Assembly (NCBI GenBank): GCA_023484045.1 | Contig: JAMDAA010000035.1 | Coordinates: forward strand, 10,966 to 74,965 | Direction of reading: 5' to 3' | Length of the DNA stretch: 64,000 nucleotides | Source of the DNA: Patescibacteria group bacterium | GTDB lineage: Bacteria > Patescibacteriota > Microgenomatia > Levybacterales > UBA12049 | Part shown: positions 3,181 through 57,499 of the stretch, piece by piece | Numbering within the stretch: the first letter of the stretch is position 1 | Layout of the letters: every line of letters starts with the position of its first letter | Notes under the pieces: model-generated | Told to the model about the DNA's origin: nothing | The model's database searches: none | Seen by the model: only the letters and a program-made list of their open reading frames with translations | Translations under genes and position numbers: made by a program

Positions 3181-3528
3181 TTATTTATTGAGGCAGACAT
3201 CAAAACCAAAACTTTTTATGCAACCTACCCCTGTAATATAACTTATAAAGCTTATAATAAAGTAGGAAAGAAGAATAATTACGAGTCCGATAATAGCGTA
3301 GGTTAATGTTTTTTTTGCGCCTTCGACTTGCTTTTGGTCGCCGCCAGATGTAATAAATTTAATACCCGAGATTATAACGATTATTACTGCAACGACTCCG
3401 GCCAAAATCAGCGCCCAGATCAAACCATTGTGAAATACGGCGGGAAGACATTTTAAAGTTGCAACTTTATCGCCTTTTTCAGTTGTTTCTAGACATTCAG
3501 GAACAAATGTTTCCCAGTCCACTCCCAT
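3181..3528 (-). CDS. TrbC/VirB2-like pilin-type small membrane protein (paralog 1)
   Basis: 115 aa with a hydrophobic helix, then GIKFITSGGDQKQVEGAKKTL, then a second hydrophobic helix. This two-TM plus conserved GG(D/N)xxKxxxAK loop is shared by all five paralogs. Confidence 0.5.
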   Translation of the reverse strand: MGVDWETFVPECLETTEKGDKVATLKCLPAVFHNGLIWALILAGVVAVIIVIISGIKFITSGGDQKQVEGAKKTLTYAIIGLVIILLSYFIISFISYITGVGCIKSFGFDVCLNK

Positions 3529-13291: not shown

Positions 13292-13529
13292 TATCTAGTC
13301 GTCTCGCTAAGCGAGATCTTGCTCCACAAGACTAATATTAGTTTGATCTATTTATAAAATCTTGTCAAGCAGTCCTTCGCTCTAAGGCTTTGCGATTTGA
13401 AGCACGCTTTCGCGAATCTATGCGGACTTGTCCGCCGAAGGTCGCCCAGAATAATTTAATTTATCTTTGTTTTTAACTCTAACTTTCATGGGTGAATGTC
13501 GCCGTCGCTAAAGCTATGGCGACCGAAGG

Positions 13530-13616
13530 CGGAGGGAGGGAGATTCGAACTCCCGGTAAAGTTTCCTCTACACACGATTTCCAATCGTGCTCCTTAAACC
13601 ACTCAGACATCCCTCC
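13530..13616 (-). tRNA. tRNA-Ser (anticodon GGA), long variable arm
   Basis: Reverse complement folds as GGAGGGATGTCTGAGTGGTTTAAGGAGCACGATTGGAAATCGTGTGTAGAGGAAACTTTACCGGGAGTTCGAATCTCCCTCCCTCCG. Anticodon loop TTGGAAA. CCA not encoded. Confidence 0.85.
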
Positions 13617-13624
13617 TAGATTTA

Positions 13625-13852
13625 TTATAGTCCTAGTCTATTAAATAGAATTTCTTTTTGTTGACCTTTTTTCTTCAGTTCTAATTCTCTTTTCCTAGTT
13701 AAAGTGTAATTGCCGTAAGCTTCATAATAGACCAAATCAAAAGGTTTGTAAGATTTTGTTGAACGAACTCTTCCAGAGTTATGCTCGTTAAATCTATTTA
13801 CTAAATTTTTTGTTGATCCAATATAGTGCCAATTTTTATTTTTTGCTTTTGA
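13625..13852 (-). pseudogene. GIY-YIG nuclease domain fragment (UPF0213-type) lacking an N-terminal strand and start codon
   Basis: Own translation: KNKNWHYIGSTKNLVNRFNEHNSGRVRSTKSYKPFDLVYYEAYGNYTLTRKRELELKKKGQQKEILFNRLGL*. It aligns to the intact paralogs at 54177 and 54853 but has no ATG and misses about 20 N-terminal residues. Confidence 0.5.
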
Positions 13853-13877
13853 TTAAATATAGATAATACACAAACGA

Positions 13878-14393
13878 CTATTTTTTTGCTTTCAACCTAC
13901 GGTTGATCGCCCGCAGGGCGACTTGCCAGACTTGTTTATCTGATTTATAAGTCAGTCTTTTTTCGACTTCATGAATATCGAGCCATTCTACGTTTTCCAT
14001 TTCGTGATCGTGATTTTTCGTATCGCCGGACACGTACTGCATTAAAAAATAATACACGGTTTTTTTTATTTTCTCTTGCCCTGAGCCTGTCGAAGGGTTC
14101 CCCTCAAATTGATACCAATACGTAACCGCCGGTAACTCTTTTTCTATTTTCCCCAAAATTCCTGTTTCTTCCTCGACTTCCCGAACCGCGGCTTCTTCCT
14201 TTGTCTCTTTTTTCTCTTGCCCTGAGCCTGTCGAAGGGCCGATTAGTCCTTTCGGAAAAACCCAGCCGTGATGTTGTGAATGTTGCGCTACAAGAATCAA
14301 AATTTTGTTATTTTCTCTTTTATGGACTATTCCTCCGGCTGAAAATTCAAATTTCATAATTTTTTGCGTCCTCGAGAGGAATCGAACCTCCAA
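13878..14393 (-). CDS. NUDIX hydrolase carrying two in-frame copies of a 23-bp repeat element
   Basis: Nudix box GX5EX7REVEEETGI is present. Two insertions, at 14075-14097 and 14215-14237, encode (G/N)PSTGSGQEK. Confidence 0.8.
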   Translation of the reverse strand: MEVRFLSRTQKIMKFEFSAGGIVHKRENNKILILVAQHSQHHGWVFPKGLIGPSTGSGQEKKETKEEAAVREVEEETGILGKIEKELPAVTYWYQFEGNPSTGSGQEKIKKTVYYFLMQYVSGDTKNHDHEMENVEWLDIHEVEKRLTYKSDKQVWQVALRAINRRLKAKK

Positions 14394-14439
14394 CCATTAG
14401 GTTCGGAACCTAACGTTCTATCCATTGAACTACGAGGAC
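14367..14439 (-). tRNA. tRNA-Arg (anticodon CCG)
   Basis: Reverse complement: GTCCTCGTAGTTCAATGGATAGAACGTTAGGTTCCGAACCTAATGGTTGGAGGTTCGATTCCTCTCGAGGACG. Anticodon loop TTCCGAA. Confidence 0.8.
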
Positions 14440-14478
14440 ACTTCGTTGTACGCTCAGTGTAAACAAATATTATCAATG

Positions 14479-14501
14479 CTTGCCCTGAGCAAAGCGAAGG
14501 G
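14479..14501. repeat. GC-rich repeat element, short form, directly abutting the 3' end of tRNA-Ser(CGA)
   Basis: cttgccctgagcaaagcgaaggg ends at 14501. The tRNA discriminator base is at 14502. Confidence 0.7.
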
Positions 14502-14586
14502 CGGAGGGTACAGGATTCGAACCTGTGTAGGCCTTTCGGCCTCGAGTTTTCGAAACTCGTGCAATTGTCCGCTATGCGAACCCTCC
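14502..14586 (-). tRNA. tRNA-Ser (anticodon CGA), long variable arm
   Basis: Reverse complement: GGAGGGTTCGCATAGCGGACAATTGCACGAGTTTCGAAAACTCGAGGCCGAAAGGCCTACACAGGTTCGAATCCTGTACCCTCCG. Anticodon loop TTCGAAA. Confidence 0.85.
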
Positions 14587-14588
14587 TG

Positions 14589-14662
14589 CGTGCCTGGCGA
14601 GACTCGGACTCGCAACCTTTAGATCCGCAATCTAATGCTCTATCCAATTAAGCTACAGGCAC
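14589..14662 (-). tRNA. tRNA-Arg (anticodon GCG as read; could be an ACG-type relative)
   Basis: Reverse complement: GTGCCTGTAGCTTAATTGGATAGAGCATTAGATTGCGGATCTAAAGGTTGCGAGTCCGAGTCTCGCCAGGCACG. Anticodon loop TTGCGGA. Atypical T-loop TCCGAGT. Confidence 0.7.
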
Positions 14663-14772
14663 ATTTGTTCCAACCGTCTATCCATTGTCCGCTAAAGCGA
14701 GATCTCGCCTCTGGCGGAAACTACGGGCACAAATCAATTTGTATTTTAGCCGATTACAGTCTTTGAAGCAAA

Positions 14773-15300
14773 TTATTTAGACGCGGCGTGGGTTTTTTCA
14801 AGGGGAAAATTGCGCGTAAGCCAATCTCCGGATTTTTCCATAAAGGTCGGTTTTATTACTTCGCGGTAGGGAAGAAAGGGTAAAAGAACAGATCTGATAT
14901 GGTCTTTACTTATATCCCCAAGCGTAATAATAAGCTCTCCCGGCAAAAAAGCGCGAGTCCTGATATGTAAAACTTCGATCCCGTGAATTTTTCTAAAATA
15001 AAAATCATAAAGCTCCTGCCATAAATAAAAATGATCTTCAACGGTTACCCCCTCGCTACTTATTCTGTAATGGAAATTATACGGAGGGACAGTTGCCAGG
15101 GCAAAAGCGACAAAAACAAGTGACGCGACGATTCCCATTAATAAATATTGTGAGAATAAGAACAAAATGACTTCGATAACGAGCGCGAGTAAAATTACGT
15201 TTATATAATACTCCTTGCCTCTTTTTCTAAACGGTCTTCCCGGCGCAGACCAGGATAAAAGCGTTTTTACTTGATTCGGGGAAAAATCAGCATTCTCCAT
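14773..15300 (-). CDS. Hypothetical two-TM membrane protein
   Basis: 175-aa ORF with two adjacent hydrophobic helices after a basic N-terminus. Confidence 0.45.
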   Translation of the reverse strand: MENADFSPNQVKTLLSWSAPGRPFRKRGKEYYINVILLALVIEVILFLFSQYLLMGIVASLVFVAFALATVPPYNFHYRISSEGVTVEDHFYLWQELYDFYFRKIHGIEVLHIRTRAFLPGELIITLGDISKDHIRSVLLPFLPYREVIKPTFMEKSGDWLTRNFPLEKTHAASK

Positions 15301-15327
15301 ACATTTACTGTAGATGATTAAAATGTT

Positions 15328-15900
15328 TTAGTCAATGTTTTTTGTTTTCGAAATCAACATTAAATATTCTGTGTTTCCGCCTTTTTCGCCTTTTAACGGA
15401 GACTCTGTTATTCCTTTAATTTCGATCGGTAAATTAGCTAGATCGTTTTTCACTTTTTCGAGCGTGTTTTCTAAAAATTCGTCTTTGACTTTACCTTTTT
15501 TCCGCCATATGTTTTCGGCTTCGTACTGGGGTTTTACGAGTGAAATTATAATTCCGTCGTCTTTTAGAAATTCAAGACTTTTTGGAATTATTAATTTTTG
15601 TTGTGTCCAGCCGACATCGACCGAAATAAAATCGACTTTTTCGGGAAGGTCAGTATATAAAGCATTTGTGCGTTCCATTACGATAACACGCGGATCATTT
15701 CTGAGTTTCCACGCTAATTCGCCGTACGCAGTATCGATCGCGTAAACTTTTTTTGCGCCGTTTTGCAAAAGACAATCCGTAAACCCGCCGGTCGAACATC
15801 CCAAATCCGCGCAGATTTTATCTTTTACATCAACATTAAATTCTCTTAAAGCGTGCTCAAGTTTTAGTCCCGCTCGTGACGCAAATTTGTTTTCGTCCAT
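15328..15900 (-). CDS. tlyA: TlyA-family rRNA 2'-O-methyltransferase (FtsJ-like). Start trimmed to MDENK
   Basis: SRAGLKLEHALREFNVDVKDKICADLGCSTGGFTDCLLQNGAKKVYAIDTAYGELAWKLRNDPRVIVMER matches the TlyA/hemolysin-A methyltransferase core. Confidence 0.7.
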   Translation of the reverse strand: MDENKFASRAGLKLEHALREFNVDVKDKICADLGCSTGGFTDCLLQNGAKKVYAIDTAYGELAWKLRNDPRVIVMERTNALYTDLPEKVDFISVDVGWTQQKLIIPKSLEFLKDDGIIISLVKPQYEAENIWRKKGKVKDEFLENTLEKVKNDLANLPIEIKGITESPLKGEKGGNTEYLMLISKTKNID

Positions 15901-15958
15901 AGTTCTAATAATATCAGAAAAGATTGCAAAAATAGGAAAAAGGGATATAATCACATTT

Positions 15959-16825
15959 ATGGCAGCAGTTGCAGAGATTTTTGAGCCCTCAAGAATCGAC
16001 GTCGACACTGTTAGTTCCGGAATATTTAAAAGAAATCTTAGAAGAGCAGGTCATTTTACCCACGAAAATTTAAAAAAAGTTCTCCCGCTTGATCTTGTTG
16101 AGGAAACAGTCAGGGAGAGATCATTAAGGGTGCCTCTGCGATTTTTTAAAGCAAGCAAAGAAGAATTCGGAACCAGCGCGTTTTTTGAAGTGGCGGGAAG
16201 ATTTTTGTTTCCGCTCCAAGCCGGAACAGTATATTTTCTATATAGAACGATGGGAGATCTTCCCTTAAGCTCAAGATTGGAGATTCTCGTAGCGGCGACG
16301 GTCGCAGGCGAAGTCTCTACATACTTTGCAGAAAAGTATGCACTCGATCATGGGATATCGGCAAGCCTAAGAACACTCACAACCTACAAAAATTCAATAT
16401 CTGAAAAAGATGAGAAAGGGAATTTCGTGGAGAAAAACCTAGGTGAAGAAGAAAAAGAAGGAAAAAAACGCGTTGCAATATTTTCTTCAAAAACACTAGG
16501 TTTTTTAACAAGTTTCCCGGCATTAATAAATGCCGGAGCTGGGATTATGGGACCTTCAGGAGCTACAGAGTACTTAATTTACAGCCAGCTTGCGGGAAGA
16601 TGTGTTGGTACTCCCTTTTGGCTGGCTGCTCATCTGATAGCTGCAAATAAAGACGAGATAAAAGCGTTTGGGAAAAAGGCTATTAAAGAGATAAAAGAGA
16701 TGCCCGAAAATGTAAGAGCAGCTTCACAAAGAATCAGGAAGGACCTAGCGCCTGCAGTTTTGGACTCTCCGGGAAAAATTAAGGATACAATCGCGCGCGA
16801 AGGAGTTATTTTTCAAAGAGACTAG
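15959..16825 (+). CDS. Hypothetical protein
   Basis: ORF 15887-16825. Start moved to the internal Met to avoid overlap with tlyA. No recognised motifs. Confidence 0.35.
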   Translation: MAAVAEIFEPSRIDVDTVSSGIFKRNLRRAGHFTHENLKKVLPLDLVEETVRERSLRVPLRFFKASKEEFGTSAFFEVAGRFLFPLQAGTVYFLYRTMGDLPLSSRLEILVAATVAGEVSTYFAEKYALDHGISASLRTLTTYKNSISEKDEKGNFVEKNLGEEEKEGKKRVAIFSSKTLGFLTSFPALINAGAGIMGPSGATEYLIYSQLAGRCVGTPFWLAAHLIAANKDEIKAFGKKAIKEIKEMPENVRAASQRIRKDLAPAVLDSPGKIKDTIAREGVIFQRD

Positions 16826-16922
16826 CGCTTGCAACTTCAAATATCTCTTCTTCGATGCCTATTTAGTTTTGGTATCAGAACTATGATGTAGCAAGGTTGT
16901 TTATTGATACGTATTGATCTAC

Positions 16923-16952
16923 TTGACTGATAATATTTTAAGAGACTATAAA
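16923..16952 (+). promoter_or_regulatory. Candidate sigma70-type promoter (TTGACT, 18-nt spacer, TATAAA) upstream of the LTD gene
   Basis: Hexamers seen at 16923-16928 and 16947-16952, 13 nt before the start codon at 16966. Confidence 0.25.
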
Positions 16953-16965
16953 TTAATTAATTGCC

Positions 16966-17937
16966 ATGAAACATCGTCTGCCCGTGTTTCTGTTTGTATT
17001 TTTAATTCCTGTTGCTGCTTTTTTCTTATTCTTTCGATTTGAAACGAAAAACGCCTCAGCGGCAAATGCCACTCATTTGGTAATTTCGGAAATACAAGTC
17101 GCCGGAGCTTCATCTTCTCAGGATTTTATCGAGCTTTATAATCCGACGTCGTCAGAGATTAGTTTAGATGGATATAGATTGGTCAAGAGGACAAGTGCGA
17201 GTGCCACAGACTCAAGTATCATGGTTTTTGCGTCTGATGAAATTATTCCCGCTCACGGTTTTTATCTGTGGTGTAATTCGAGTTTAACTGCAAGTTTTGG
17301 ATGTGACAGAAATACGGGCGCTAGCATTGCTAATAACAACAGCATCGGTTTACGTAATGGTCCCGCAAATACAGGGACAGTGGTCGATGCGGTTACTTTT
17401 GGATCTGTAACAAACGCGCTCGGAGAGGGGATATCTCTTACTGCTCCTGTTGCGAGTACGAGTGTTGAAAGAAAAGCGAGTCCTACTTCAGATTCTGCGA
17501 GTATGGCAGTCGGAGGGTCTGATGAATTTATGGGAAACGGGGAAGATACAGATAATAACGCTTCGGATTTTGTAATAAGAACTATGCCTCAGCCCCAAAA
17601 TAGCAAGTCGGCCGTTGAGCCAGCTTTAACATCAACAGAGAGTCCGACCGGAACAATTACGCCAACTGTTACTCCGATAATTACAGAAACACCCACGGAA
17701 ACTCCGACAGAAACTCCAGCTGCAACACCAACGATCGGGATAACAATAACGCCGACTCCTACATTAATTCCCACAATTACACCTTCCCCCAAACCGACGC
17801 CGATTTTGCATAACCCGTTTGTTATTAAACTTCCAAACTCGATATTAGTCTGCGGCTTCCGTTATATAAAAGTTCCGATACTGTGGGGCATGATGCGTAT
17901 GCCAAGATTTACATGCTTCTTTGTGCGCCTCAAATAG
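16966..17937 (+). CDS. Secreted lamin-tail-domain (LTD) protein with a TP-rich linker
   Basis: Signal peptide, then LVISEIQVAGASSSQDFIELYNPTSSEISLDGYRL (LTD signature), then a TPTETPTETPAATPT low-complexity linker. Confidence 0.6.
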   Translation: MKHRLPVFLFVFLIPVAAFFLFFRFETKNASAANATHLVISEIQVAGASSSQDFIELYNPTSSEISLDGYRLVKRTSASATDSSIMVFASDEIIPAHGFYLWCNSSLTASFGCDRNTGASIANNNSIGLRNGPANTGTVVDAVTFGSVTNALGEGISLTAPVASTSVERKASPTSDSASMAVGGSDEFMGNGEDTDNNASDFVIRTMPQPQNSKSAVEPALTSTESPTGTITPTVTPIITETPTETPTETPAATPTIGITITPTPTLIPTITPSPKPTPILHNPFVIKLPNSILVCGFRYIKVPILWGMMRMPRFTCFFVRLK

Positions 17938-17940
17938 TTC

Positions 17941-18360
17941 TTATTTTACGCCAGAGAGCATGACAACGCCTAAAAATATTATTATCGTTCCAATTACCCC
18001 GATTATATTAGGAAATTGGCGGTACAATACAGAACTAAGGATTAACGCGATAACAATACTAAAAGCCTGAACGCTTCTGGCATACCCGACATTGGAAGTT
18101 AATTTATACGCATAAAAAATTGAGAGATCCGCAATAGCCGCAAGGATGGAAACAATTATTAGGAGCGATGAGTTTTTTATATCTGGGATTGTAATTTTGG
18201 TAGTAAGCAAAGAAACGACCCATAAAATAATAGCAACGATACTGTAATACCAAGCCATCGCTAATTGGGGAGGAACTTTTTGTTGGATAGTTTTAAGGAA
18301 TAGTGGGATTATCCCAAATCCGATCGCAGAAACTAAAGATAATATAAACCAATTATTCAT
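17941..18360 (-). CDS. Small four-TM membrane protein (EamA/DMT-like half transporter?). Start trimmed to MNNWF
   Basis: Four hydrophobic helices. The longer ORF start would read through a copy of the GC-rich repeat element. Confidence 0.4.
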   Translation of the reverse strand: MNNWFILSLVSAIGFGIIPLFLKTIQQKVPPQLAMAWYYSIVAIILWVVSLLTTKITIPDIKNSSLLIIVSILAAIADLSIFYAYKLTSNVGYARSVQAFSIVIALILSSVLYRQFPNIIGVIGTIIIFLGVVMLSGVK

Positions 18361-18393
18361 AAATATATTAAGAAAATAGGCGGAGAGGGTGGG

Positions 18394-18470
18394 ATTCCCT
18401 TCGACTTCGCTCAGGGTAAACTTCTCATCTCGCCCAGACTTCAACTCACTCTACTTGCACTGAGCAAGCA
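18394..18470. repeat. Two adjacent copies of the GC-rich repeat element (one inverted) at the 3' flank of tRNA-Ser(TGA)
   Basis: cccttcgacttcgctcagggtaa is the reverse complement of ttaccctgagcgaagtcgaaggg. It is followed by cttgcactgagcaagcaaagcgcgtcgaagtgcgg. Confidence 0.6.
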
Positions 18471-18485
18471 AAGCGCGTCGAAGTG

Positions 18486-18572
18486 CGGAGAGGGTGAGAT
18501 TCGAACTCACGGTGGCGAAAACGCCACAATAGTTTTCAAGACTATCCGGATAAACCGCTCCCGCACCTCTCC
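18486..18572 (-). tRNA. tRNA-Ser (anticodon TGA), long variable arm
   Basis: Reverse complement: GGAGAGGTGCGGGAGCGGTTTATCCGGATAGTCTTGAAAACTATTGTGGCGTTTTCGCCACCGTGAGTTCGAATCTCACCCTCTCCG. Anticodon loop CTTGAAA. Confidence 0.85.
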
Positions 18573-18745: not shown

Positions 18746-19447
18746 GTGGGTATTCTAGATTTTCTTTTCCCAAAATATTGTGTTAATTGTAAAAAAATCG
18801 GCTCGTATCTTTGCGGTAATTGTTTTTCTTATTTATCTTTTGACGACGAAAAAATATGCGTGGTTTGCGATCGGCCATCGATTAATAGCTTGACTCATCC
18901 GCGCTGCCAAACAAAATACGCGATCGATGGTGTTTTTACGAGCCTTGCGTATAAAGGAGTGGTTAAAAAACTCGTTTATAAGTTTAAATACAATCCTTAT
19001 CTCTCTGATCTTAAAAATCTACTTATAGAGCTTTTTTACGAAGGTTTAATTCAGAAAGAGGATTTTTACAGGGTTTTTTCGAAAGATTCGGTTTTTGTTC
19101 CAATCCCACTTCACCCTTCAAAATTAAAGAAAAGGGGATATAACCAGTCGCAAATTTTGGCTGAAGAGTTGTCGAAAAAATTCGGGAATAGAGTCGTAAA
19201 CTTACTAGAAAGAGTAAAAGATACAAAAACTCAAGCCGGTCTTAAAAAGGATGACAGAAAGAAAAATATTATTGCCGCCTTTGTTCTCAAAAGGTCTCAC
19301 CTTGATCAAGGTGAGACCTTGAACGGGAAAACCATCTTTATCGTGGACGATGTTTTGACTACCGGCTCAACTTTTTTGGAGGCGGCAAAGGTGCTCAAGA
19401 AAGGAGGAGCAAAGCGCGTTTTTGGCCTCGCTCTAGCCAGGGATTAA
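18746..19447 (+). CDS. comF: ComF-family protein (phosphoribosyltransferase domain with N-terminal Cys-rich zinc finger). Start uncertain
   Basis: [10 protein letters not shown]...CGNC...VCDRP zinc-finger motifs, then the PRTase signature [15 protein letters not shown]. The listed ORF start at 18602 overlaps tRNA-Ser and is spurious. A GTG at 18746 is proposed instead. Confidence 0.65.
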
Positions 19448-19911
19448 TAGGAGTTCTCATTTTTTCCATATAGCTTTAAAATTTCTTTGGCCCAAACTAT
19501 TACGTCTTTTACTCTAACGCCAGAGGGCTGTGGTTTCACCCATAGTTCTAGATTTTCAATTCTGTTATCATCCTTAACTCCGTTTTTATGGTGGACATTT
19601 TCATTGGACATTAAAAATCTTCCTAATTTTTTCTCCATTACGATAATGTGCTCGAATATATATCCCGTACCTTTTTGTGAATGAGGATGTTCTTTTTTTC
19701 GTGTTAATATATAGCCATTGTGTTTAACGGAAGTGTTATAATTTCTTCTAGTTTGACTCTCGCATTTTCCGCAGAAATTCGACGTTGGTTGTATAAGCTT
19801 ACCGCATTTTGGACAAGGTTTTTTGTAGATCTGACCCCTACAAGATGGACAAAGCTTATGTCTACTAGAGGGTGTAAACAGCCTTTGACATTGTAAACAT
19901 ATTCTCTCCAC
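19444..19911 (-). CDS. HNH endonuclease with N-terminal zinc ribbon
   Basis: Four CxxC pairs at the N-terminus. HNH core ...[20 protein letters not shown]. Confidence 0.65.
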
Positions 19912-19949
19912 AATTTAATATTAATTTATTGTGGACTTATTGTAAAGTG

Positions 19950-20334
19950 TGGAGATGTCGAGCATTGAGTCTCGAGTCCAAGAATATCCTTAAAAAACAT
20001 CTACAAGCTTATTCGATTTTTGTCCCACCAAAGGCGGGAGTCGCTCTATTCTTTTCTAATCGAAAAGAATGAATAAAGTCAAGGTTTATAATAATAAATA
20101 AGGACGAAAACCGTTTTCCTTATCATCTCTCAACTGTTTTTATGCCCATATCGCCCCGTTGAGAAAAGACAACATGAACAGGTCTAATTCAATTAAGCGT
20201 ATAGTAACGCCGGTTGATATCGACCGCTAAACGATTGCTCGTTAGCATTTATAATTTGAATCTGTTTTACGACTATTATTCAAAGTCGGCTTGCAGTTTT
20301 TTAATGTACTTTCTTGTCGATACGATGCATCCCC
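19950..20334 (-). ncRNA. ssrA: Candidate tmRNA (ssrA) next to smpB
   Basis: The reverse strand begins GGGGATGCATCGTATCGAC..., like the tmRNA 5' end GGGGnnGAttcGAC. It ends ...GGACTCGAGACTCAATGCTCGACATCTCCA, with a T-arm-like hairpin and an acceptor strand pairing with the 5' GGGGATG. A possible tag ORF is ...ANEQSFSGRYQPALLYA*. The tag frame is uncertain. Confidence 0.5.
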
Positions 20335-25910: not shown

Positions 25911-26873
25911 GTGGAGAAATACAATTTAGTCGCGATCGGTGATGCTGTGATCGATGTCTTTTTAACGATCGGTGAAGAAAATGTTCACGTAAATTTTAAG
26001 GATTCAGAACTTTGTTTTAAATACGGAACCAAAATTCCGGTCGAAAGCGCTAATTTTTTCTTAGGCGGAAACGCGTGTAATGTATCGGTCGGATTATCAA
26101 AACTTGGTTTTAAAACGGCGCTTTTTTCTGAAATCGGTGACGACGATTTTTCGGACATGGTTATTAAGGGTTTAAAAAACGAAAACGTTTCAGAAGAGTT
26201 TGTTAGGAAAGTGAGCGGGATTTCTTCTTTTTCGGTCGGGATAAATTACAAAGGAGAGCGTACGCTTTTTGTTGAGCACGTCCAGAGAAAAAACAATTTT
26301 GATTTTTCAAACATAGATACAGAATGGGTCTATTTAACGAGTCTCGGAAAAGAATGGAAAGACGCGTATAAAAAGACGTTAGATTTTGTTCAAAACAAAA
26401 ACCTGCGGTTCGCGTTTAATCCGGGAACATTGCAACTTAAAGAAGGATATTCTTCTATTTCAGAGATCCTCAAAAAGACAGACGTGCTTTTTTTAAACAA
26501 GGAGGAGTCAATAAAACTTCTGTATGGTATTAACAATTCGGAACAGATAGACGATATCGATGAGCTCTTAGTCAATTTGCAAGCACTCGGATCTAAAATA
26601 GTAGTAATAACAGATGGGATAAATGGCTCATTTTGTATCGATGAAGACAAAAAAACTTATTCACGCGAGATAATCGACGTAAAAGTTATGAATAAAACAG
26701 GTGCCGGAGACGCTTATACTTCGGGATTTATCGCGGCTTTAATTTCGGGTAAAACTGTGAAAGATGCGATGGAGTGGGGAACATTGAACGCAACTGCGGT
26801 TATCGGAAAGATCGGAGCACAAGTCGGTCTTTTGAAAAAAACCGAGATGGAAGAAAAATTAAAGAGCTTATGA
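25911..26873 (+). CDS. PfkB-family carbohydrate kinase (ribokinase-like)
   Basis: GGNACNVSVGLSKLGF near the N-terminus and the GAGDAYTSGFIAAL anion-hole motif near the C-terminus. Confidence 0.75.
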   Translation: MEKYNLVAIGDAVIDVFLTIGEENVHVNFKDSELCFKYGTKIPVESANFFLGGNACNVSVGLSKLGFKTALFSEIGDDDFSDMVIKGLKNENVSEEFVRKVSGISSFSVGINYKGERTLFVEHVQRKNNFDFSNIDTEWVYLTSLGKEWKDAYKKTLDFVQNKNLRFAFNPGTLQLKEGYSSISEILKKTDVLFLNKEESIKLLYGINNSEQIDDIDELLVNLQALGSKIVVITDGINGSFCIDEDKKTYSREIIDVKVMNKTGAGDAYTSGFIAALISGKTVKDAMEWGTLNATAVIGKIGAQVGLLKKTEMEEKLKSL

Positions 26874-27697
26874 TTTCACTCGATAAAATAACAACAAACA
26901 ATAAGGCCTTGTATCTTGCTTACGATCAGGGTTTTGAACACGGACCGACAGATTTTAACGATGAAAATGTCGACCCGAATTTCGTATTAGATATCGGAAT
27001 AAAAGGTGGTTTTAACGCGATAATTTTCCAAAAAGGAGTCGCGGAAAAATATTATCCTTCGACAAGCTCAGGACAAGTTCCTTCGGCAAGCTCCCTTCAG
27101 CAAAGTTCAGAGCAGGCAGGACAAGTTACTAAAATACCACTCATACTTAAACTGAATGGAAAAACAAATCTTGTCGAAGGACGAGATCCGTATTCGCCAC
27201 TTTTGTGTACAGTCAGTGAGGCCTTGGATTTGGGTGCGGTAGCTGTTGGTTATACGATTTATGTCGGAAGTGAATTCGAAAGTAAAATGACATCGGAATT
27301 TTCTTCGGTTGTCCGCGAAGCGCACGAGAAAGGAGTTCCTGTAATAGGATGGATGTATTTGGCAGGAAAATTCCTTCGGCAAGCTCAGGACAAGCAAAAA
27401 GGCAGAGAACTAACGGCGTATGCTGCAAGGCTCGGATTGGAATTAGGCGCAGATATTATTAAAATAAAATATCCCGGGGATTTGGAATCGCTGAAATGGG
27501 CGGTCGAATCGGCAGGAAAGACAAAAGTTGTTATCTCGGGCGGGGTAAAGGAGAATGAAAACGAATTTTTAGAAACTGCAAAAACGATAATGGAGACGGA
27601 AGCAATCGGTATGGCTGTCGGCCGAAACATCTGGCAAAATAAAAATCCGCTCGAAATAACAAAAAAGTTGAAGGAGATTATTTTTAAAAATAGTTAA
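26870..27697 (+). CDS. Class I aldolase of the DhnA/FbaB (DeoC-like) family, with two in-frame repeat-element insertions
   Basis: MISLDKITTNNKALYLAYDQGFEHGPTDF... TIM-barrel aldolase pattern. Start set at the internal Met (ATGA overlap with the kinase stop). Insertions are TSSGQVPSASSLQQSSEQAGQ (27055-27128) and FLRQAQDKQKG (27371-27400). Confidence 0.55.
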   Translation: MISLDKITTNNKALYLAYDQGFEHGPTDFNDENVDPNFVLDIGIKGGFNAIIFQKGVAEKYYPSTSSGQVPSASSLQQSSEQAGQVTKIPLILKLNGKTNLVEGRDPYSPLLCTVSEALDLGAVAVGYTIYVGSEFESKMTSEFSSVVREAHEKGVPVIGWMYLAGKFLRQAQDKQKGRELTAYAARLGLELGADIIKIKYPGDLESLKWAVESAGKTKVVISGGVKENENEFLETAKTIMETEAIGMAVGRNIWQNKNPLEITKKLKEIIFKNS

Positions 27698-37495: not shown

Positions 37496-38596
37496 TTACT
37501 CAAAAAAACTTTTATAAAACGACGTGCTTCTTTGAATCGCTGTTTCCCAACTGCCATTATTAAAATTGTGATTCTCTCCGGGGTATGTGTGATAAGTAAC
37601 ATTTTTTCCGAGTTTTTTAAGCTCGTCTACTAATTGGTTAGACCATTTTTGAGGAACTGCTTCATCGTCTCCGCCTTGATGAATTTCAATCGGCGCGTTT
37701 ATCCAGGAGAAATAATTAGTTAGCGAATAGAGTTCAATATCATAACCTTTTTCAAAATCAGCGATAATTTTCCTTAAATACTTTCCGTGGTCATCTAATT
37801 CGTCGGTGTAATAAAAAATCGAATAAGGAAAAGGTTTTGAAACAGGAGCCCAAAGCACAGTCGGGTACCTTCGGCCGGTTATTTCTAAAATAGATAAAGC
37901 AATTTGACCTCCGTTACTGTGTCCCCAAATTCCAACCTTTTCATAATCTGCCTTAGTTTCACTATTAACATTTATTAAGCCTTCATTTATGTTTTTAATC
38001 GAAGAAAGTAAAGTTAGGGCAGTTGTGTATGTTTGAAATCTATCTTCGAGCGAATCAGTCGAGGCAGGAGAGGATTCACTGTAACCTAAAAAATCGGGCG
38101 CTAAAGTTATAAATCCGTTTTGGGCAAAATATTCTCCACCGTGTTGTGTTCCGACTCCAAAATCATAAATTTCTTTATCGACATATCCCCGAAACATAAC
38201 AATTACCGGATACGCGCCTTGTTTTTTCGGGATATTCGCGAGTCCGCTGACTTTTTTAGCTTGCCCTGAGCTCTTCGAGTCTGAGCTTGAGGGTTCCTCC
38301 CTCAGAGTCGAATGACCTGTCGAAGGGACATCAAAATAAAAAACCCGCGAGGTATAATCGGGAGTTTCTTTTATGATCTTTCCAAAAGTGATCGGACTTT
38401 CTTTCCAGCCAGAGGCTGGTCCGCCTTTGGCGGAAAAAGTTTTTTTTAAGTTTTCGAAACTGTATTTTTCAAACTTTTTTTCTTTGATATTGCTTAAAGG
38501 ATTTATTAGAGGTTTTTGTTGCTGACTAAGTAAATAAATTACGCCGATAAGAGCTAAAAAAACGAGGGAGTATACAAGATATATTTTTTTCATCAT
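37496..38596 (-). CDS. Secreted alpha/beta-hydrolase (esterase/peptidase-like) with an in-frame 68-bp repeat-element insertion
   Basis: GHSNGG nucleophile elbow and an N-terminal TM/signal. The insertion at 38260-38327 encodes HSTLREEPSSSDSKSSGQAKK. Confidence 0.6.
   Translation of the reverse strand: MMKKIYLVYSLVFLALIGVIYLLSQQQKPLINPLSNIKEKKFEKYSFENLKKTFSAKGGPASGWKESPITFGKIIKETPDYTSRVFYFDVPSTGHSTLREEPSSSDSKSSGQAKKVSGLANIPKKQGAYPVIVMFRGYVDKEIYDFGVGTQHGGEYFAQNGFITLAPDFLGYSESSPASTDSLEDRFQTYTTALTLLSSIKNINEGLINVNSETKADYEKVGIWGHSNGGQIALSILEITGRRYPTVLWAPVSKPFPYSIFYYTDELDDHGKYLRKIIADFEKGYDIELYSLTNYFSWINAPIEIHQGGDDEAVPQKWSNQLVDELKKLGKNVTYHTYPGENHNFNNGSWETAIQRSTSFYKSFFE
38260..38327. repeat. GC-rich repeat element, long form (CTTGCCCTGAGC - internal hairpin - CTGTCGAAGGG), in-frame in the esterase gene
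   Basis: cttgccctgagc tcttcgagtctgagcttgagggttcctccctcagagtcgaatgac ctgtcgaaggg. The termini are identical to the 23-bp short form at 14075 and 14215. The internal segment has a ctcagagtcga/tcgagtctgag inverted repeat. Confidence 0.7.
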
Positions 38597-43895: not shown

Positions 43896-46397
43896 ATGAA
43901 ACTTGACGGAATAAGACAACAGGTATTTTTAGACAGATACGCCTTAAAAGATAAAAAAGGACATCCGATTGAACAAGCTCCAGATGAAATGTGGCAAAGA
44001 GTCGCGCGTGGTGTTTCTCAGGCTGAAAAAAAAGAAGACAGAAAACTTTGGGAGAAAAAATTTGTCGACGCGATGAAGGATTTCAAATTTGTACCGGGCG
44101 GGAGAATTTTGGCTGGCGCTGGAACCGGTTTTGACGTAACATTTTATAATTGTTTTGTTTTGCCTTCTCCCGCCGATTCAAGAGACGGAATTTTGGATAA
44201 TCTTAAATCGATGATCGAGATTATGGCGCGGGGCGGAGGTGCGGGGATTAATCTTTCTTCTCTTAGGCCTCGCGGAGCGAGGGTTAAAAAAGTAAACGGA
44301 TTTTCATCGGGGCCGTGTAATTGGGCAGAGCTTTATTCGATCGCGACTCATGACATTATTCAACAAGGAGGATCAAGGCGAGGCGCTTTGATGCTCATGC
44401 TCTGGGACTGGCATCCGGATATAGAAGAGTTTGTTACTGTAAAACAGGATTTAAGAAAAATAACGGGCGCTAATCTTTCGGTTTGCGTATCCGATAGATT
44501 TATGGAAGCGGTAAAAAAAGATGAAAATTGGGATTTAGTATTTCCTGACCTTTCAGATAAAGATTACGACGAAAAGTGGGACGGAGATTTAACTACCTGG
44601 AGAGCATTAAAAAAGAAAGTAAAAGTATACAAAACAATAAAAGCTAGACATCTTTGGAATTTAATTTGTGAGGCCGCGTGGAAAAGCGCTGAACCTGGAA
44701 TCGTTTTTATGGAACGCTACAATAAAATGTACAACAATTGGTATTGGAACAGGGTTAATTGTACAAATCCGTGTGGAGAAGAAGGACTTCCGGCGTGGGG
44801 CGTATGTAATTTAAGTTCGCTCAATCTTTCGGCTTTTGTAAGGGGTTATTCTGTCGACAAGCCGGGAGAGATGGATTATAAAAGTTTGGCAGAACACGCA
44901 AAAATCGGAGTAAGGCTTCAAGACGACGTGATTAATATTGATAGTTACGCTTTCCCCGAAATCAAAGAGATGCAGGTAAACGGAGAGCGAAGAATCGGTC
45001 TCGGGACTTTGGGACTCGGCGACGCGCTTATAAAGATGCATCTTCGCTATGGATCGGATAAGTCGCTTAAAGTGATCGAAAAAATTTTCAAAACAATAAG
45101 AGACGCGGCGTATGAAGCGTCGACAGAAATCGCGAAAGAAAAAGGTGCTTTCCCGAAATTTAACGCGACAAAATATCTAAAAGGATATTTTATAAAAAAA
45201 CTTCCAAAAAATCTTCGAGACAAAATCAGAAAATACGGAATCAGAAATTCGCTTCTTTTGCAGGAAGCACCCACCGGCTCAACGAGTCTTTTATCCGGAG
45301 TTTCGTCCGGTATCGAACCGATTTACGAATTCGAATTTATCAGAAAAGACAGACTTGGTGAACATAAGATGTTTCACCCCCTTTATGAAGAATGGAAAAA
45401 AGCCCATCCGAATTCACTAACTAGTGAAAGACCCGATTATTTTGTTTCGGCGAATGATTTAACACCGGAGGATCATGTAAAAGTTCAATCGACAATTCAG
45501 CAATACGTCGATGCGTCGATTTCTAAAACCGTTAACGCGCCAAAAATACACACGGTAGAAGATGTTAAAAAATTGTACGAGCTCGCGTATAAACTCGGTT
45601 GTAAAGGAATTACATACATGAGGGAGGGTTCAAGAGAAGGGGTTCTGACAAGAATCGATGCTTCGGCAAGCTCAGCACAAGAGAAAAAAGAAGAACAGCC
45701 GGTTGCTACTACACAAGTGGTTTATTCTCATAAACCGATGGTTGCGCGGCCGGAAAGAGCAGAAGGAGTTACTTACAGAACTCAAACCCCGATCGGCGAA
45801 GCGTTTATTACGATAAATCACGATGAAAACAAAGAACCGTTTGAAATGTTTATTACGATCGGAAAATCGGGGTCAGATATTGCCGCGATGGCAGAGGCGC
45901 TAGGCAGAATAGTATCGTTGAACTTAAGACTTTCAGGCGGGCTTTCCCCGCGCGAGAGAGTTAGACAGGTTATCGCTCAGCTTGCCGGAATCGGCGGTGC
46001 AAGAAGTGTTGGGTTTGGTAAAGAAAAAGTTAGGTCTTTACCCGATGCAGTCGCAAAAGTTTTAGCGAGACATTTTAACTTTTCTGTAAACGGTAAAGTC
46101 GAAGATAAAAAAATGGTCGCAGTAACAAACGGAGAAGCAAAAGAGATGGTCGAAAAACAAGATCAGAGAGTAATTAAAAACGGAGAAAGTAAATTAGATG
46201 TTAAAGAATTTAAAGAAAAACAAGATATTATTATGCTTCAACAGCTTTCTATCGAAGGACAAGCGAGTGGTTTGTCGCTTGAGCATTCTTCGACCAGCAC
46301 GAGTCTTTTTGATGTGTGTCCGGATTGCGGAAGCGGAAGTTTAGCGTACGAAGAAGGCTGTAGAAAATGTTACAGCTGTGGTTATTCAGAATGTTAA
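43896..46397 (+). CDS. nrdJ: Class II (adenosylcobalamin-dependent) ribonucleotide reductase
   Basis: 833 aa. The N-terminal region and the C-terminal Cys cluster (CPDCGSGSLAYEEGCRKCYSCGYSEC) are typical of NrdJ. Small in-frame insertion at 45661-45685 (ASASSAQEK). Confidence 0.85.
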   Translation: MKLDGIRQQVFLDRYALKDKKGHPIEQAPDEMWQRVARGVSQAEKKEDRKLWEKKFVDAMKDFKFVPGGRILAGAGTGFDVTFYNCFVLPSPADSRDGILDNLKSMIEIMARGGGAGINLSSLRPRGARVKKVNGFSSGPCNWAELYSIATHDIIQQGGSRRGALMLMLWDWHPDIEEFVTVKQDLRKITGANLSVCVSDRFMEAVKKDENWDLVFPDLSDKDYDEKWDGDLTTWRALKKKVKVYKTIKARHLWNLICEAAWKSAEPGIVFMERYNKMYNNWYWNRVNCTNPCGEEGLPAWGVCNLSSLNLSAFVRGYSVDKPGEMDYKSLAEHAKIGVRLQDDVINIDSYAFPEIKEMQVNGERRIGLGTLGLGDALIKMHLRYGSDKSLKVIEKIFKTIRDAAYEASTEIAKEKGAFPKFNATKYLKGYFIKKLPKNLRDKIRKYGIRNSLLLQEAPTGSTSLLSGVSSGIEPIYEFEFIRKDRLGEHKMFHPLYEEWKKAHPNSLTSERPDYFVSANDLTPEDHVKVQSTIQQYVDASISKTVNAPKIHTVEDVKKLYELAYKLGCKGITYMREGSREGVLTRIDASASSAQEKKEEQPVATTQVVYSHKPMVARPERAEGVTYRTQTPIGEAFITINHDENKEPFEMFITIGKSGSDIAAMAEALGRIVSLNLRLSGGLSPRERVRQVIAQLAGIGGARSVGFGKEKVRSLPDAVAKVLARHFNFSVNGKVEDKKMVAVTNGEAKEMVEKQDQRVIKNGESKLDVKEFKEKQDIIMLQQLSIEGQASGLSLEHSSTSTSLFDVCPDCGSGSLAYEEGCRKCYSCGYSEC

Positions 46398-46410: not shown

Positions 46411-46454
46411 CCCTTCGATTTCGCCAAGTCAGACTTGGCTTCGCTCAGGGCAAG
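46411..46454. repeat. GC-rich repeat element (inverted orientation, with ccaagtcagacttgg palindromic insert), intergenic after nrdJ, flanked by TCAAAAA-type heptamers
   Basis: cccttcgatttcgccaagtcagacttggcttcgctcagggcaag. Its reverse complement begins cttgccctgagcgaag. Flanked by gatcaaaaatcaa and gaattcaaaaatcaaaactacaagttaaaactcaaaag. Confidence 0.65.
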
Positions 46455-52346: not shown

Positions 52347-52418
52347 GGGCTCGTAGCTCAGCGGGAGAGCGGTTGTCTTATAAACAACAGGTGCTTGGTT
52401 CGACCCCAAGCGGGCCCA
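52347..52418 (+). tRNA. tRNA-Ile (anticodon TAT)
   Basis: GGGCTCGTAGCTCAGCGGGAGAGCGGTTGTCTTATAAACAACAGGTGCTTGGTTCGACCCCAAGCGGGCCCA. Anticodon stem GTTGT/ACAAC, loop CTTATAA. Confidence 0.75.
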
Positions 52419-52470
52419 CTTCGAATCCAAGCGGACGCACAAGTAAATCTCAAATCTCAAAAATCAAATC

Positions 52471-54176: not shown

Positions 54177-54422
54177 TTAGATTTTTAAACCTAAAATTTT
54201 CATCTTTTTATCTCTCCTCCAACCTTTAATTTGGCTCTCTCTTTTTAGGGCTGCAAATTTTGATTCAAGTGGTTCGGCATAAAGTAGTTTTACTGGTTTA
54301 TGAGACCTTGTGTATCTCCCGCCTTTCCCATTTTTATGATCCACAAATCTTGCATCGGGATTATTTGAGGAACCCGTATATAAACTGCCGTCAGAGCATA
54401 GAATAATGTAAACGAACCACAT
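54177..54422 (-). CDS. GIY-YIG nuclease-domain protein (UPF0213-type)
   Basis: MWFVYIILCSDGSLYTGSSNNPDARFVDHKNGKGGRYTRSHKPVKLLYAE... has the classic GIY...YTG...R...H...G...E pattern. Confidence 0.75.
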   Translation of the reverse strand: MWFVYIILCSDGSLYTGSSNNPDARFVDHKNGKGGRYTRSHKPVKLLYAEPLESKFAALKRESQIKGWRRDKKMKILGLKI

Positions 54423-54685
54423 AAAAGTGCTTGCACTGAACGGAGCGAAGCCTAGAAAAAGATATGTCCTTCGATAAACTCAGGACAATTCGCCGCTTCT
54501 ATTCTAAATGCTTGCAATGAGCAAGCCCGAATGAAATGAAGGGCGCGTCGAATTGTTGCGGGGCTGGGAGTTGCGCCCAGCCTGTGAGATTATGAGCCTC
54601 ACGTGCACTGTACACTACCCCGCGCGTGCGTACTATTATAACAATTGATTTCACCTTGGTCAACCTGATATACTTTGATCTGAAA

Positions 54686-54762
54686 GCCAGGGTAGCTCAG
54701 TCGGTAAGAGCACAGCATTCATAACGCTGAGGTCGTGGGTTCGATTCCCACCCCTGGTACCA
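54686..54762 (+). tRNA. tRNA-Met/Ile2-type (anticodon CAT), CCA encoded
   Basis: GCCAGGGTAGCTCAGTCGGTAAGAGCACAGCATTCATAACGCTGAGGTCGTGGGTTCGATTCCCACCCCTGGTACCA. Whether it is elongator Met, initiator or lysidine-Ile2 cannot be decided from the sequence. Confidence 0.8.
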
Positions 54763-54852
54763 TAAAGCAGAACAAGTTCGCTTTATGGCCATGAAGTGAT
54801 CTTTGATCTACTTCATTGGCTATTAATGTTTCTTTCGAATCAATAGAAACAA

Positions 54853-55158
54853 ATGTCAAAACTTACGCATTGTGTTTACGTTTTGTTTAGTTTAAAAGAT
54901 AAAAATTTTTATATTGGATCTTCTTCAAATTTAAAGTCAAGATTAACGGACCATTTTAATGGAGAAGTTAAAAGCACTTTGTTCAGAAGACCATTTAAGC
55001 TTATTTTTTGTGAATATTTTTTATCTAAAAAAGATTCGTTAAGGAGAGAAAAATATTTTAAAACGACTTCAGGAAAAAAGGCATTAAAATTAATTATTAG
55101 AAAATCGCTTGATGAATTAATGCCTAAATTGGTTTCAAGAAATGCAAATTCTGTCTAA
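54853..55158 (+). CDS. GIY-YIG nuclease-domain protein (second intact paralog)
   Basis: ...CVYVLFSLKDKNFYIGSSSNLKSRLTDHFNGEVKSTLFRRPFKLIFCEYF... Confidence 0.7.
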   Translation: MSKLTHCVYVLFSLKDKNFYIGSSSNLKSRLTDHFNGEVKSTLFRRPFKLIFCEYFLSKKDSLRREKYFKTTSGKKALKLIIRKSLDELMPKLVSRNANSV

Positions 55159-57498: not shown

Positions 57499-57499
57499 C

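Follow-up and report, generated by a model that had tools for sequence, protein, structure and literature searches.

A tRNA-associated hairpin repeat in a Patescibacteria genome as the probable boundary of small GIY-YIG nuclease cassettes

The DNA under study is a stretch of 64,000 nucleotides (nt) from a Patescibacteria group bacterium of the Levybacterales (GenBank assembly GCA_023484045.1, contig JAMDAA010000035.1, positions 10,966 to 74,965), hereafter called the window, in which a repeat of 22-32 nt directly follows the genes for tRNA-Ser(CGA) and tRNA-Ser(TGA). This repeat is probably the boundary hairpin of a mobile cassette of the homing-endonuclease type, which would replace the 3' end of its host gene and from which derivatives without an open reading frame (ORF), similar to miniature inverted-repeat transposable elements (MITEs), would have arisen. 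Such cassettes and their miniature derivatives at tRNA 3' ends form a widespread family that has apparently not been described before. The order of parts in a cassette is an intact tRNA gene, a left-boundary hairpin (L), a nuclease ORF, one or two inverted hairpins (R) and a displaced copy of the tRNA tail. This tail consists of the T-loop, the 3' strands of the T-stem and the acceptor stem, the discriminator base and sometimes CCA.

The architecture was found in a motif scan of one genome per species (185,579 species) with GTTCGAATC, a gap of 12-20 nt and CCTTCGNNNNGCTCAG, which yielded 102 loci. In 34 of the 102 motif-anchored loci the 3' part of the tRNA was repeated downstream, at distances of either ~40-190 nt or ~330-370 nt, and the long-distance class holds an ORF of 89-106 amino acids (aa). 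A GIY-YIG ORF lay directly downstream at 26 of 103 motif-anchored sites. The cassette ORFs match Pfam family PF01541 with E-values from 7e-16 to 5e-19, and the invariant columns in 15 sequences include Y5, Y15, G17, R25, H29 and E61, which are the GIY, YIG, Arg, His and Glu positions. The product is therefore predicted to have a homing-endonuclease fold with its catalytic residues intact. The nearest solved structures are the UPF0213 proteins 1ZG2 and 1YWL, followed by SLX1.

The association was also found in the reverse direction, with 80 metagenome loci that were picked by nuclease similarity alone, not by the motif, and with 506 distant tiles as background. L was present within 160 nt upstream of the nuclease at 34 of 70 loci (6 of 506 background tiles), and R on its 3' side at 33 of 76 loci (4 of 506 tiles). 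A tRNA gene on the same strand ended at most 250 nt upstream of the nuclease in 26 of the 80 loci, and 16 had a remnant downstream. At loci without an intact tRNA, L and R still flank the nuclease ORF. In one metagenome contig (Ga0310695_10021365, locus L151; labels of this kind denote compared loci or genomes) the nuclease ORF and R lie inside what is, by our own reading of the translation, an epimerase gene. The 3' coding end of this gene is doubled, the intact one lying upstream of the ORF and a diverged, displaced one directly after R; L is absent. Besides these long forms, ORF-less short forms of 60-110 nt were found that keep both ends. Short forms and long forms (L114, L115) carry one and the same right-end module, GGGATGAGAAGTTTAC plus R, and the short forms are therefore taken to be internal-deletion derivatives.

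The duplicated tRNA 3' stretches are 15-28 nt long and often non-identical, with compensated differences; at tRNA-Ser(CGA) there is none. Integrases that target tRNA genes typically leave direct repeats running from the T-loop to the 3' end, and look-alike sites in haloarchaea with a different motif also carry remnants (L001, L036), so that the duplications could be attL/attR scars of integrase islands at which unrelated hairpin repeats have accumulated. However, the inserts between the tRNA copies measure 60-420 bp and hold no integrase, their only ORF being the GIY-YIG ORF, and for that reason we do not regard them as scars of integrase islands. In addition, both junctions coincide precisely with the hairpins in dozens of independent loci, and the same design recurs in a protein gene, which makes this explanation very improbable.

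The window itself has a G + C content of 38%, and nine tRNA genes were called with ARAGORN. Four of these are tRNA-Ser genes, all on the minus strand, with the discriminator G at 13530, 14502, 18486 and 18606 (ARAGORN and Rfam placement). Read on the minus strand, the discriminator of tRNA-Ser(CGA) is followed by CCCTTCGCTTTGCTCAGGGCAAG, a full copy of the repeat (14479-14501), and that of tRNA-Ser(TGA) by CACTTCGACGCGCTTTGCTTGCTCAGTGCAAG, a full copy of the CACT..AGTG type with an insertion in the loop (18454-18485). After the G of tRNA-Ser(GGA) comes CCTTCGGTCGCC, in which 7 nt (CCTTCGG, 13523-13529) are in common with the repeat, the GCTCAGG half is absent and a different hairpin, GTCGCC..GGCGAC, follows; this trailer as a whole spans 13498-13529 on the minus strand. 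The G of tRNA-Ser(GCT) is followed by CCAaac, without an element. A preliminary description of the window, made from the letters alone, had the repeat abutting three of the four tRNA-Ser genes, the third as a truncated copy. This holds for the full copies at Ser(CGA) and Ser(TGA). At Ser(GGA) there is only a 7-nt resemblance with an unrelated hairpin next to it, possibly a relic of L and no bona fide copy. The same description correctly gave tRNA-Ser(GCT), with its encoded CCA, as lacking the element in the window. Matches to GCTCAGGGCAAG with at most 2 mismatches numbered 15 in the window against 2.05 expected, and none of 100 shuffles reached 15; a stricter search gave nine near-full copies, where shuffles yielded 0-2. 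CCTTCG occurs at 35 sites on 128 kb (both strands), and by our own arithmetic the chance of an offset of 0-2 nt at 2 of 9 tRNA genes is ~2e-5.

Both full copies belong to larger units that the preliminary description had missed. The L hairpin of tRNA-Ser(CGA) folds as GCCCU..AGGGC (-9.5 kcal/mol) and is paired with an R-type inverted hairpin, CACTGAGCGTACAACGAAGT(G), at 14440-14459 on the minus strand. This copy abuts the 5' end of tRNA-Arg(CCG), its last G (14439) being G1 of that tRNA, and L and R together make up a 62-nt ORF-less unit that fills the spacer between the two genes. After tRNA-Ser(TGA), the rest of an ORF-less short form (18397-18453, minus strand) consists of the partner arm of L, GGGCGAGATGAGAAGTTTA and the inverted copy, R hairpin CCCTGAGCGAAGTCGAAGGG (18397-18416). 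A second tRNA-Ser tail follows, AATCCCACCCTCTCCGCC (18379-18396, minus strand; AAT-CCCAC-CCTCTCC-G-CC), which is a displaced remnant of the tRNA-Ser(TGA) 3' end. The short form at Ser(TGA) thus has L, R and a remnant, and that at Ser(CGA) L and R. The hairpin type of Ser(TGA), CACTTCGRCAAGCTCAGTGCAAGC, also occurs at many metagenome cassettes, and the right-end module after this gene is 90-96% identical to that of L051 and L015 and common to the ORF-bearing long forms L114 and L115.

Comparison with related genomes revealed that these sites are polymorphic. The window is syntenic with L037 (Candidatus Levybacteria), L069 and L019 at 65-75% nucleotide identity, the common cluster being Ser(GGA) .. 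Ser(CGA)-Arg(GCG) .. Ser(TGA)-Ser(GCT) .. tmRNA. Occupancy was compared in the window, L037, L069, L051, L015, L019 and L115, genomes not listed for a gene lacking that gene in the fetched stretch. The Ser(GGA) site is occupied in the window (relic only), in L051 (a full short form starting CCCTTCGGCAAG) and in L015 (another short insert plus remnant) and empty in L037. At Ser(CGA), the window has L and R, L069 only L, L015 a full short form and L051 a GIY-YIG ORF in the spacer to tRNA-Arg(CCG); L037 and L019 are empty, without the L and R unit. Ser(TGA) carries short forms in the window and L037 and is empty in L069, L051 and L015, and Ser(GCT) is occupied in L069 (short form) and L115 (long form with ORF) and empty in the window, L037 and L051. 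Each of the four Ser genes is therefore occupied in some related Microgenomates genomes and empty in others. The L069 gene, which has no insert, ends in exactly the CCCAC-CCTCTCC-G of the window remnant, and the functional Ser(TGA) copy of the window, unlike the remnant, has a compensated T-stem, GTGAG/CTCAC. In L038 the remnant retains its own T-stem 5' strand (TGGGG..CCCCA), while the functional gene has CGGGG..CCCCG. At L048, L070, L053, L056 and L119 the remnant is followed by another L, which points to serial invasions.

Three further observations concern the surroundings of these sites. Relative to L037 and L019, where a NUDIX gene directly follows tRNA-Ser(CGA), the window has an extra 136 nt at 14366-14501 (minus strand), made up of the L and R unit and the whole of tRNA-Arg(CCG); L051 also has tRNA-Arg(CCG) there, with the GIY-YIG ORF before it. 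In L037 (3248-4363, minus strand) ORFs of 77 and 83 aa lie between tRNA-Ser(CGA) and NUDIX, possibly toxin-antitoxin-like, and the 5' end of the NUDIX gene (MKFEFSAGG..) is duplicated on the tRNA side. In the relatives L051 (1746-2100, minus strand) and L069 (~360-420 and 3250-3400), GIY-YIG ORFs and tRNA 3' ends are bordered by another repeat, ACGTAAGAAATTGCAACGCAATTTCAACGT, and different nuclease subfamilies may use different boundary repeats.

The hairpin consists of a covarying stem of 4-6 bp and a conserved 11-nt loop, (C/T)CCT-TCGACAAGCTC-AGG(G/A), in this genome with CAAG next. The loop of R, GAGCYTGTCGA, is the reverse complement of that of L, TCGACAAGCTC. In 73 non-identical tRNA-adjacent L hairpins the three inner pairs are Watson-Crick in 73/73 and the fourth in 60/73. 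One step further out, the last nucleotide of the tRNA lies opposite the base that comes right after AGGR, and this pair is Watson-Crick in 64/73 (G73-C 22/23, A73-T 13/15, A76-T 26/29); beyond it the positions are random. All 12 A.C cases at the outer L pair come from hairpins of the Ser long-hairpin type. Stems vary by full compensation (CCCT/AGGG, TCCT/AGGA, CACT/AGTG, GGT/ACC, TACT/AGTA, TCCC/GGGA). The R stem extends into T-loop nucleotides 59-60 of the remnant, which its 5' arm matches: TTCGAAT goes with ATGGT..ACCAT and TTCGAGT with ACGGT..ACCGT (L176). A segment beside R is often complementary to the start of the remnant, with a mean longest exact stem of 5.47 against 3.92 in 200 permutations (maximum 4.49), so that the right end and the remnant together look like a minihelix of acceptor and T-stem whose loop is expanded. 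In R stems, about one G.T and one A.C wobble pair were counted by hand, which gives no signal for a strand or for RNA.

Folding of the trailers, suggested in the preliminary description, distinguished two of the three genes. In the Ser(CGA) trailer L pairs with R (-17.7 kcal/mol, z -2.5 against shuffles) and the Ser(TGA) trailer folds at -46 kcal/mol (z -4.3), whereas the Ser(GGA) trailer is unremarkable (z -1.4). These two z-scores, together with a stem whose first position is the last tRNA nucleotide and which covaries with that nucleotide, would also suit a hairpin that is primarily a host RNA signal for tRNA 3'-trailer processing or termination, with the cassettes merely adjacent. The hairpin is moreover on the tRNA sense strand at every tRNA junction, and L is absent from the sole cassette in a protein gene (L151). 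Against such a signal, the same hairpin unit occurs in frame within ORFs and on either strand, L and R flank the nuclease where there is no intact tRNA, and orthologous tRNAs manage without the hairpin. No Rfam family matches it: a search with Rfam 15 at gathering and E-value thresholds, covering the window and seven loci, returned only tRNA, tmRNA and sub-threshold noise. We consider a primary role as a host RNA signal unlikely. An intrinsic terminator in particular was rejected; the loop of 11 nt is outside the terminator norm of 3-8 nt, a terminator scan flagged no copy, and a T-run (at least 5 T in the next 8 nt) follows 6 of 75 tRNA-adjacent copies and none in the window.

The preliminary description had linked the repeat to tRNA-Ser, either as its place of origin or as its insertion target, and Ser is indeed the commonest single isotype (22 of 68 typed sites in the motif scan). 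With ARAGORN typing, the scan gave Ser 22, Gln 12, Asn 11, Glu 9, Lys 3 and Pro 2, and Met, Ile, Ala, Tyr, Trp and His 1 each; the remainder were 34 sites without a typed tRNA and 4 Arg genes of haloarchaea, which carry a different motif. The haloarchaeal and some Acidobacteriota matches (CCTTCGCTTCGCTCAGTC; e.g. L001, L036) had been let in by the NNNN in the pattern and were set aside as a different motif. In the protein-anchored sample the tRNAs were Gln 7, Ser 5, Asn 4, Glu 2, Tyr 2, Leu 2, and His, Gly, Arg and Lys 1 each. Overall the hairpin abuts about 13 isotypes. Its hosts in the candidate phyla radiation (CPR) include Saccharibacteria, Levy-, Woese-, Roizman-, Ames-, Gottesman- and Chisholmbacteria and others, and outside it Acidobacteriota, Nitrospirota, Omnitrophota, Dependentiae and further phyla.

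Two other points are in favour of a link with Ser. The Ser acceptor 3' strand, CCCTCCG, resembles the start of the element, CCCTTCG, and within the conserved Ser/Arg cluster of the lineage the element is present at about 8 of 18 Ser 3' ends and at 0 of 11 Arg genes, a comparison that is biased, since most of these loci were retrieved through a Ser match. However, because Ser has 4-5 genes per genome its rate per gene is unremarkable, Microgenomates relatives have the hairpin on Glu and Lys genes (L007, L012, L014, L035, L046, L054), and in the window a variant copy stands beside a tRNA(CAT)-like gene. An element that derives from tRNA-Ser or specifically targets it is hardly credible. Origin in a tRNA-Ser trailer is contradicted by the hairpin beside about 13 isotypes in many phyla, and the inspection of other isotypes, which the preliminary description had itself named as decisive and which was run over the 185,579 species, refuted the Ser link. 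What stands of its proposed insertion into Ser acceptor-like sequence is insertion directed at tRNA 3' ends; the specificity for serine falls away. An encoded CCA is no barrier, as the hairpin comes right after CCA at 29 junctions (CCA, then TCCT..AGGA, then T).

The repeat also occurs as solitary copies, nine or ten of which lie inside ORFs in the window, where they read as PSTGSGQE (twice), PSTSSGQV, FLRQAQDK, SKSSGQA, SASSAQE and SFDSAQDK, or as LALSGVEG on the opposite strand. Two are in frame in the NUDIX ORF (minus strand), which is 81% identical to its L037 orthologue in alignment. The copy at 14075-14097 (NPSTGSGQE) is a clean 24-nt insertion relative to that orthologue, and that at 14216-14238 (GPSTGSGQE), in the loop of the NUDIX box, gives a net +15 nt. 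From the clean insertion it follows that the hairpin can enter genes by itself. On the plus strand, the ORF at 26774-27697 contains a copy with an adjacent partial copy, PSTSSGQVPSASSLQ (27055-27100), and a further one at 27372-27394 (FLRQAQDK); the ORFs at 43896-46397 and 55954-57498 contain copies at 45660-45681 (SASSAQE) and 56320-56343 (SFDSAQDK), and an intergenic copy with a loop insertion lies at 46411-46454. On the minus strand, copies were located at 38260-38281 in the ORF at 37496-38596 (SKSSGQA) and at 58196-58219, antisense to the ORF at 57428-58720 (LALSGVEG). These copies may be connected with the nuclease.

The homing reading, which is based on sequence comparison, can be put as follows. 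A complete cassette would adjoin the 3' end of its host, in most cases a tRNA gene and of nearly any isotype, with L starting at the last tRNA nucleotide. Its stand-alone UPF0213-type GIY-YIG nuclease of 80-105 aa would cut cassette-free alleles in or near the T-loop/3' region, and repair would copy the cassette plus the 3' part of the donor tRNA. As the donor 3' part would be copied along, the tRNA gene would stay intact and its native 3' end would be displaced downstream. The hairpins would probably be structural boundary modules, in RNA or in single-stranded DNA. Homing with co-conversion is favoured over plain duplication because the remnant equals the insert-free orthologue, the differences are compensated on two strands and the architecture resembles that of fungal mobile ORFs (mORFs). 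Simple target-site duplication was judged less likely, as the differences in the window and L038 are compensated on both strands and the remnant corresponds to the insert-free orthologue.

Several of the same features would also suit a true transposon with single-stranded hairpin intermediates, in which the UPF0213 GIY-YIG protein would be a transposase-like, structure-specific enzyme and the T-arm, a stem-loop with TTCGA, would act as target mimic. The loops are conserved and the covarying stems extend into target nucleotides at both ends, the segment beside R pairs with the remnant more than in any permutation, the first five nucleotides of the T-loop recur in the L loop region as (C)TTCGA, SLX1, which among characterised proteins is nearest to the nuclease, is a structure-specific endonuclease, and solitary units are dispersed in ORFs. 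On the other hand, there is no consistent target-site duplication, the differences between remnant and functional copy look allelic, and L and R are inverted, unlike the ends of IS200/IS605, which lie on the same strand. We hold such a transposon to be distinctly unlikely.

A number of observations weigh against homing. It does not explain the solitary 24-nt copies within ORFs. Among the 80 protein-anchored loci 21 show no tRNA, L, R or remnant, and about half of the tRNA-adjacent L hairpins have neither ORF nor remnant. In the window, the unit at Ser(CGA) is without a remnant, and no tRNA-Ser gene is adjoined by a GIY-YIG ORF, apart from an interrupted frame upstream of Ser(GGA). The upstream intact tRNA retains its T-loop and would need protection from being cut again. 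The covariation counts are inflated by the shared ancestry of the cassettes, which are not phylogenetically independent, although several independent compensations are indicated since isotypes and stem types vary. Finally, the Ser(TGA) short form is common to the window and L037 (~65-70% genome identity) and the R module is 90-96% conserved, a degree of conservation that could reflect a retained host function and not mobility.

The closest parallel to the proposed homing cassettes was found in fungal mitochondria, where a foreign C-terminal gene part arrives with the mORF and the native part is displaced (PMC3630166). The order is the same in Allomyces atp6 and in Glomus atp6, atp9, cox2 and nad3, namely a replaced 3' end, an ORF of the LAGLIDADG or GIY-YIG type and the displaced native end, and the native copy matches relatives while the functional copy is divergent (PMC3630166); likewise, the window remnant equals the L069 allele, and L151 behaves in the same way. 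In contrast to the fungal mORFs, the present cassettes reside at tRNA genes of bacterial chromosomes, have an ORF of only ~90 aa and are bounded by conserved inverted hairpins, and there are ORF-less miniatures and solitary hairpins. The Seg family of T4-like phages is described as free-standing GIY-YIG genes, with SegB in a tRNA cluster, that spread by double-strand break and co-conversion (PMC2330249), and thus shares with our cassettes a GIY-YIG nuclease gene among tRNA genes. The nuclease here is of another GIY-YIG subfamily, UPF0213/SLX1-like, and the Seg genes are without tRNA 3' duplication or hairpin termini. A phage origin is unsupported: two typical cassette nucleases had no match in PHROGs, and a scan of viral contigs with the nuclease profile gave only 1 partial match.

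Like MITEs, the short forms are without an ORF and keep the inverted termini of the long form. They differ in having stem-loops as termini, whose stems covary, and tRNA 3' ends as their setting, and the duplication, of 18-28 nt of host sequence, is probably not a short, fixed target-site duplication. REP/RAYT and IS200/IS605 systems have short, GC-rich, dispersed hairpins tied to a small nuclease gene, and pairing between flank and element near the foot of the hairpin. Here, however, the partner is a GIY-YIG and not an HUH/Y1 protein, there is no GTAG motif, the ends are inverted, and nine or ten window copies are in ORFs, where REP sequences are extragenic. Rickettsia palindromic elements are 100-150 nt long and not 24 nt, belong to other lineages and are not known to be tied to tRNA 3' ends and a nuclease as the present repeats are. 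In the open-access literature, to which the search was confined, no description of such cassettes at bacterial tRNA genes was found.

On a broader scale, UPF0213/YhbQ-type GIY-YIG proteins might be the nucleases of unrecognised minimal selfish elements with hairpin ends, a landing pad at the tRNA T-arm/acceptor 3' strand, guide-like pairing and 24-nt non-autonomous progeny, a GIY-YIG counterpart of REP/RAYT; this generalisation is speculative and we put it forward with considerable doubt. The 24-nt hairpins, which are scattered through genes and spacers in many phyla, would then be the source of recurrent PSTSSGQA-, FDKLRxx- and SLSKxE-like stretches in hypothetical proteins. If the cassette reading holds, it would account for a common, phylum-spanning repeat that adds spurious or inserted 8-residue segments to protein predictions, one of which sits in the Nudix box loop of the NUDIX enzyme of the window. 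It would likewise give part of the uncharacterised UPF0213 GIY-YIG family a likely role as selfish homing nucleases, and the tRNA genes of streamlined CPR genomes would be hotspots of repeated invasion, in which the T-arm and acceptor 3' strand are rewritten and the gene survives. For annotation, the rule would be to treat a tRNA, hairpin, optional small ORF and second tRNA tail as one unit. The cassettes would also offer experimenters a small natural system (~400 bp) directed at conserved tRNA genes.

Three GIY-YIG reading frames are present in the window, each beside a tRNA gene. The first (54177-54422, minus strand) encodes a putative nuclease of 81 aa of the UPF0213 type (PF01541, E 5.5e-19; profile A1, 8e-30) and is preceded by the CAT tRNA-like gene at 54555-54624, called by ARAGORN only, and then by three hairpins. 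These are an L variant with a loop insertion (54511-54552, minus strand), 2 nt past the tRNA-like gene and overlooked in the preliminary description, and, at 54430-54486 on the same strand, an R-type hairpin, GTCCTGAGTTTATCGAAGGAC (54466-54486), and a second L-type hairpin, CTTCGCTCCGTTCAGTGCAAG (54430-54450), the last ending 7 nt upstream of the start codon of the nuclease. The second frame (54853-55158, plus strand; 101 aa) lies 90 nt downstream of tRNA-Met (54686-54762) and has no canonical L or R. The third (13628-13852, minus strand) is interrupted by an in-frame stop and ends just upstream of tRNA-Ser(GGA) (A1 hmmsearch, 2e-14).

The gene at 54555-54624 (minus strand) was called by ARAGORN as tRNA-Met(CAT), with an initiator-type acceptor (C1.A72; CGCGGGG..CCCCGCAA), a D-loop of 3 nt and the T-loop CGCAACT, and the Rfam tRNA model gave no match to it with the E-value limit raised to 10. 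The gene is an initiator tRNA of aberrant form or else a decayed tRNA copy that precedes a cassette. The spacer between tRNA-Met and the second GIY-YIG ORF (54763-54852, plus strand) contains three small hairpins, and one of these, GTTTCT-TTCGAATCAAT-AGAAAC, has a T-loop-like loop.

In the region of the tmRNA (19444-19911 and 19947-20334, minus strand), an ORF that has, by our own reading, a putative HNH-endonuclease-like motif starts 36 nt past the tmRNA 3' end. A duplicated tmRNA 3' end after this neighbouring HNH gene was looked for in the window and none was found. In L115 and L037 a GIY-YIG ORF is next to the tmRNA in place of the HNH-like ORF.

At 52347-52439 (plus strand), tRNA-Ile(TAT) ends at 52418 and is followed by C and then by TTCGAATCCAAGCGGACGCA, a second segment from T-loop to discriminator that represents another allele (acceptor CGGACGC versus CGGGCCC), with no hairpin or ORF in between. 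This double tail may have arisen by deletion, or it may show the same 3'-end replacement without a cassette. Immediately before tRNA-Arg(GCG), at 14663-14735 (minus strand), there is a tRNA 5' fragment, GTGCCCGTAGTTT..AATGGATAGAC.., which resembles the Arg genes; its D-loop is broken by a GC-rich hairpin, CCGCCAGAGGCGAGATCTCGCTTTAGCGGAC, and the fragment corresponds on the 5' side to the remnants on the 3' side. GC-rich hairpin repeats of a second family (CGCTAAGCGAGATCT.., GTCGCC..GGCGAC and GGACAAGTCCGC) are found in spacers near the tRNA cluster, at 13296-13325, 13498-13523 and 14690-14720, and related pieces are also present in the L037 spacer downstream of Ser(GGA).

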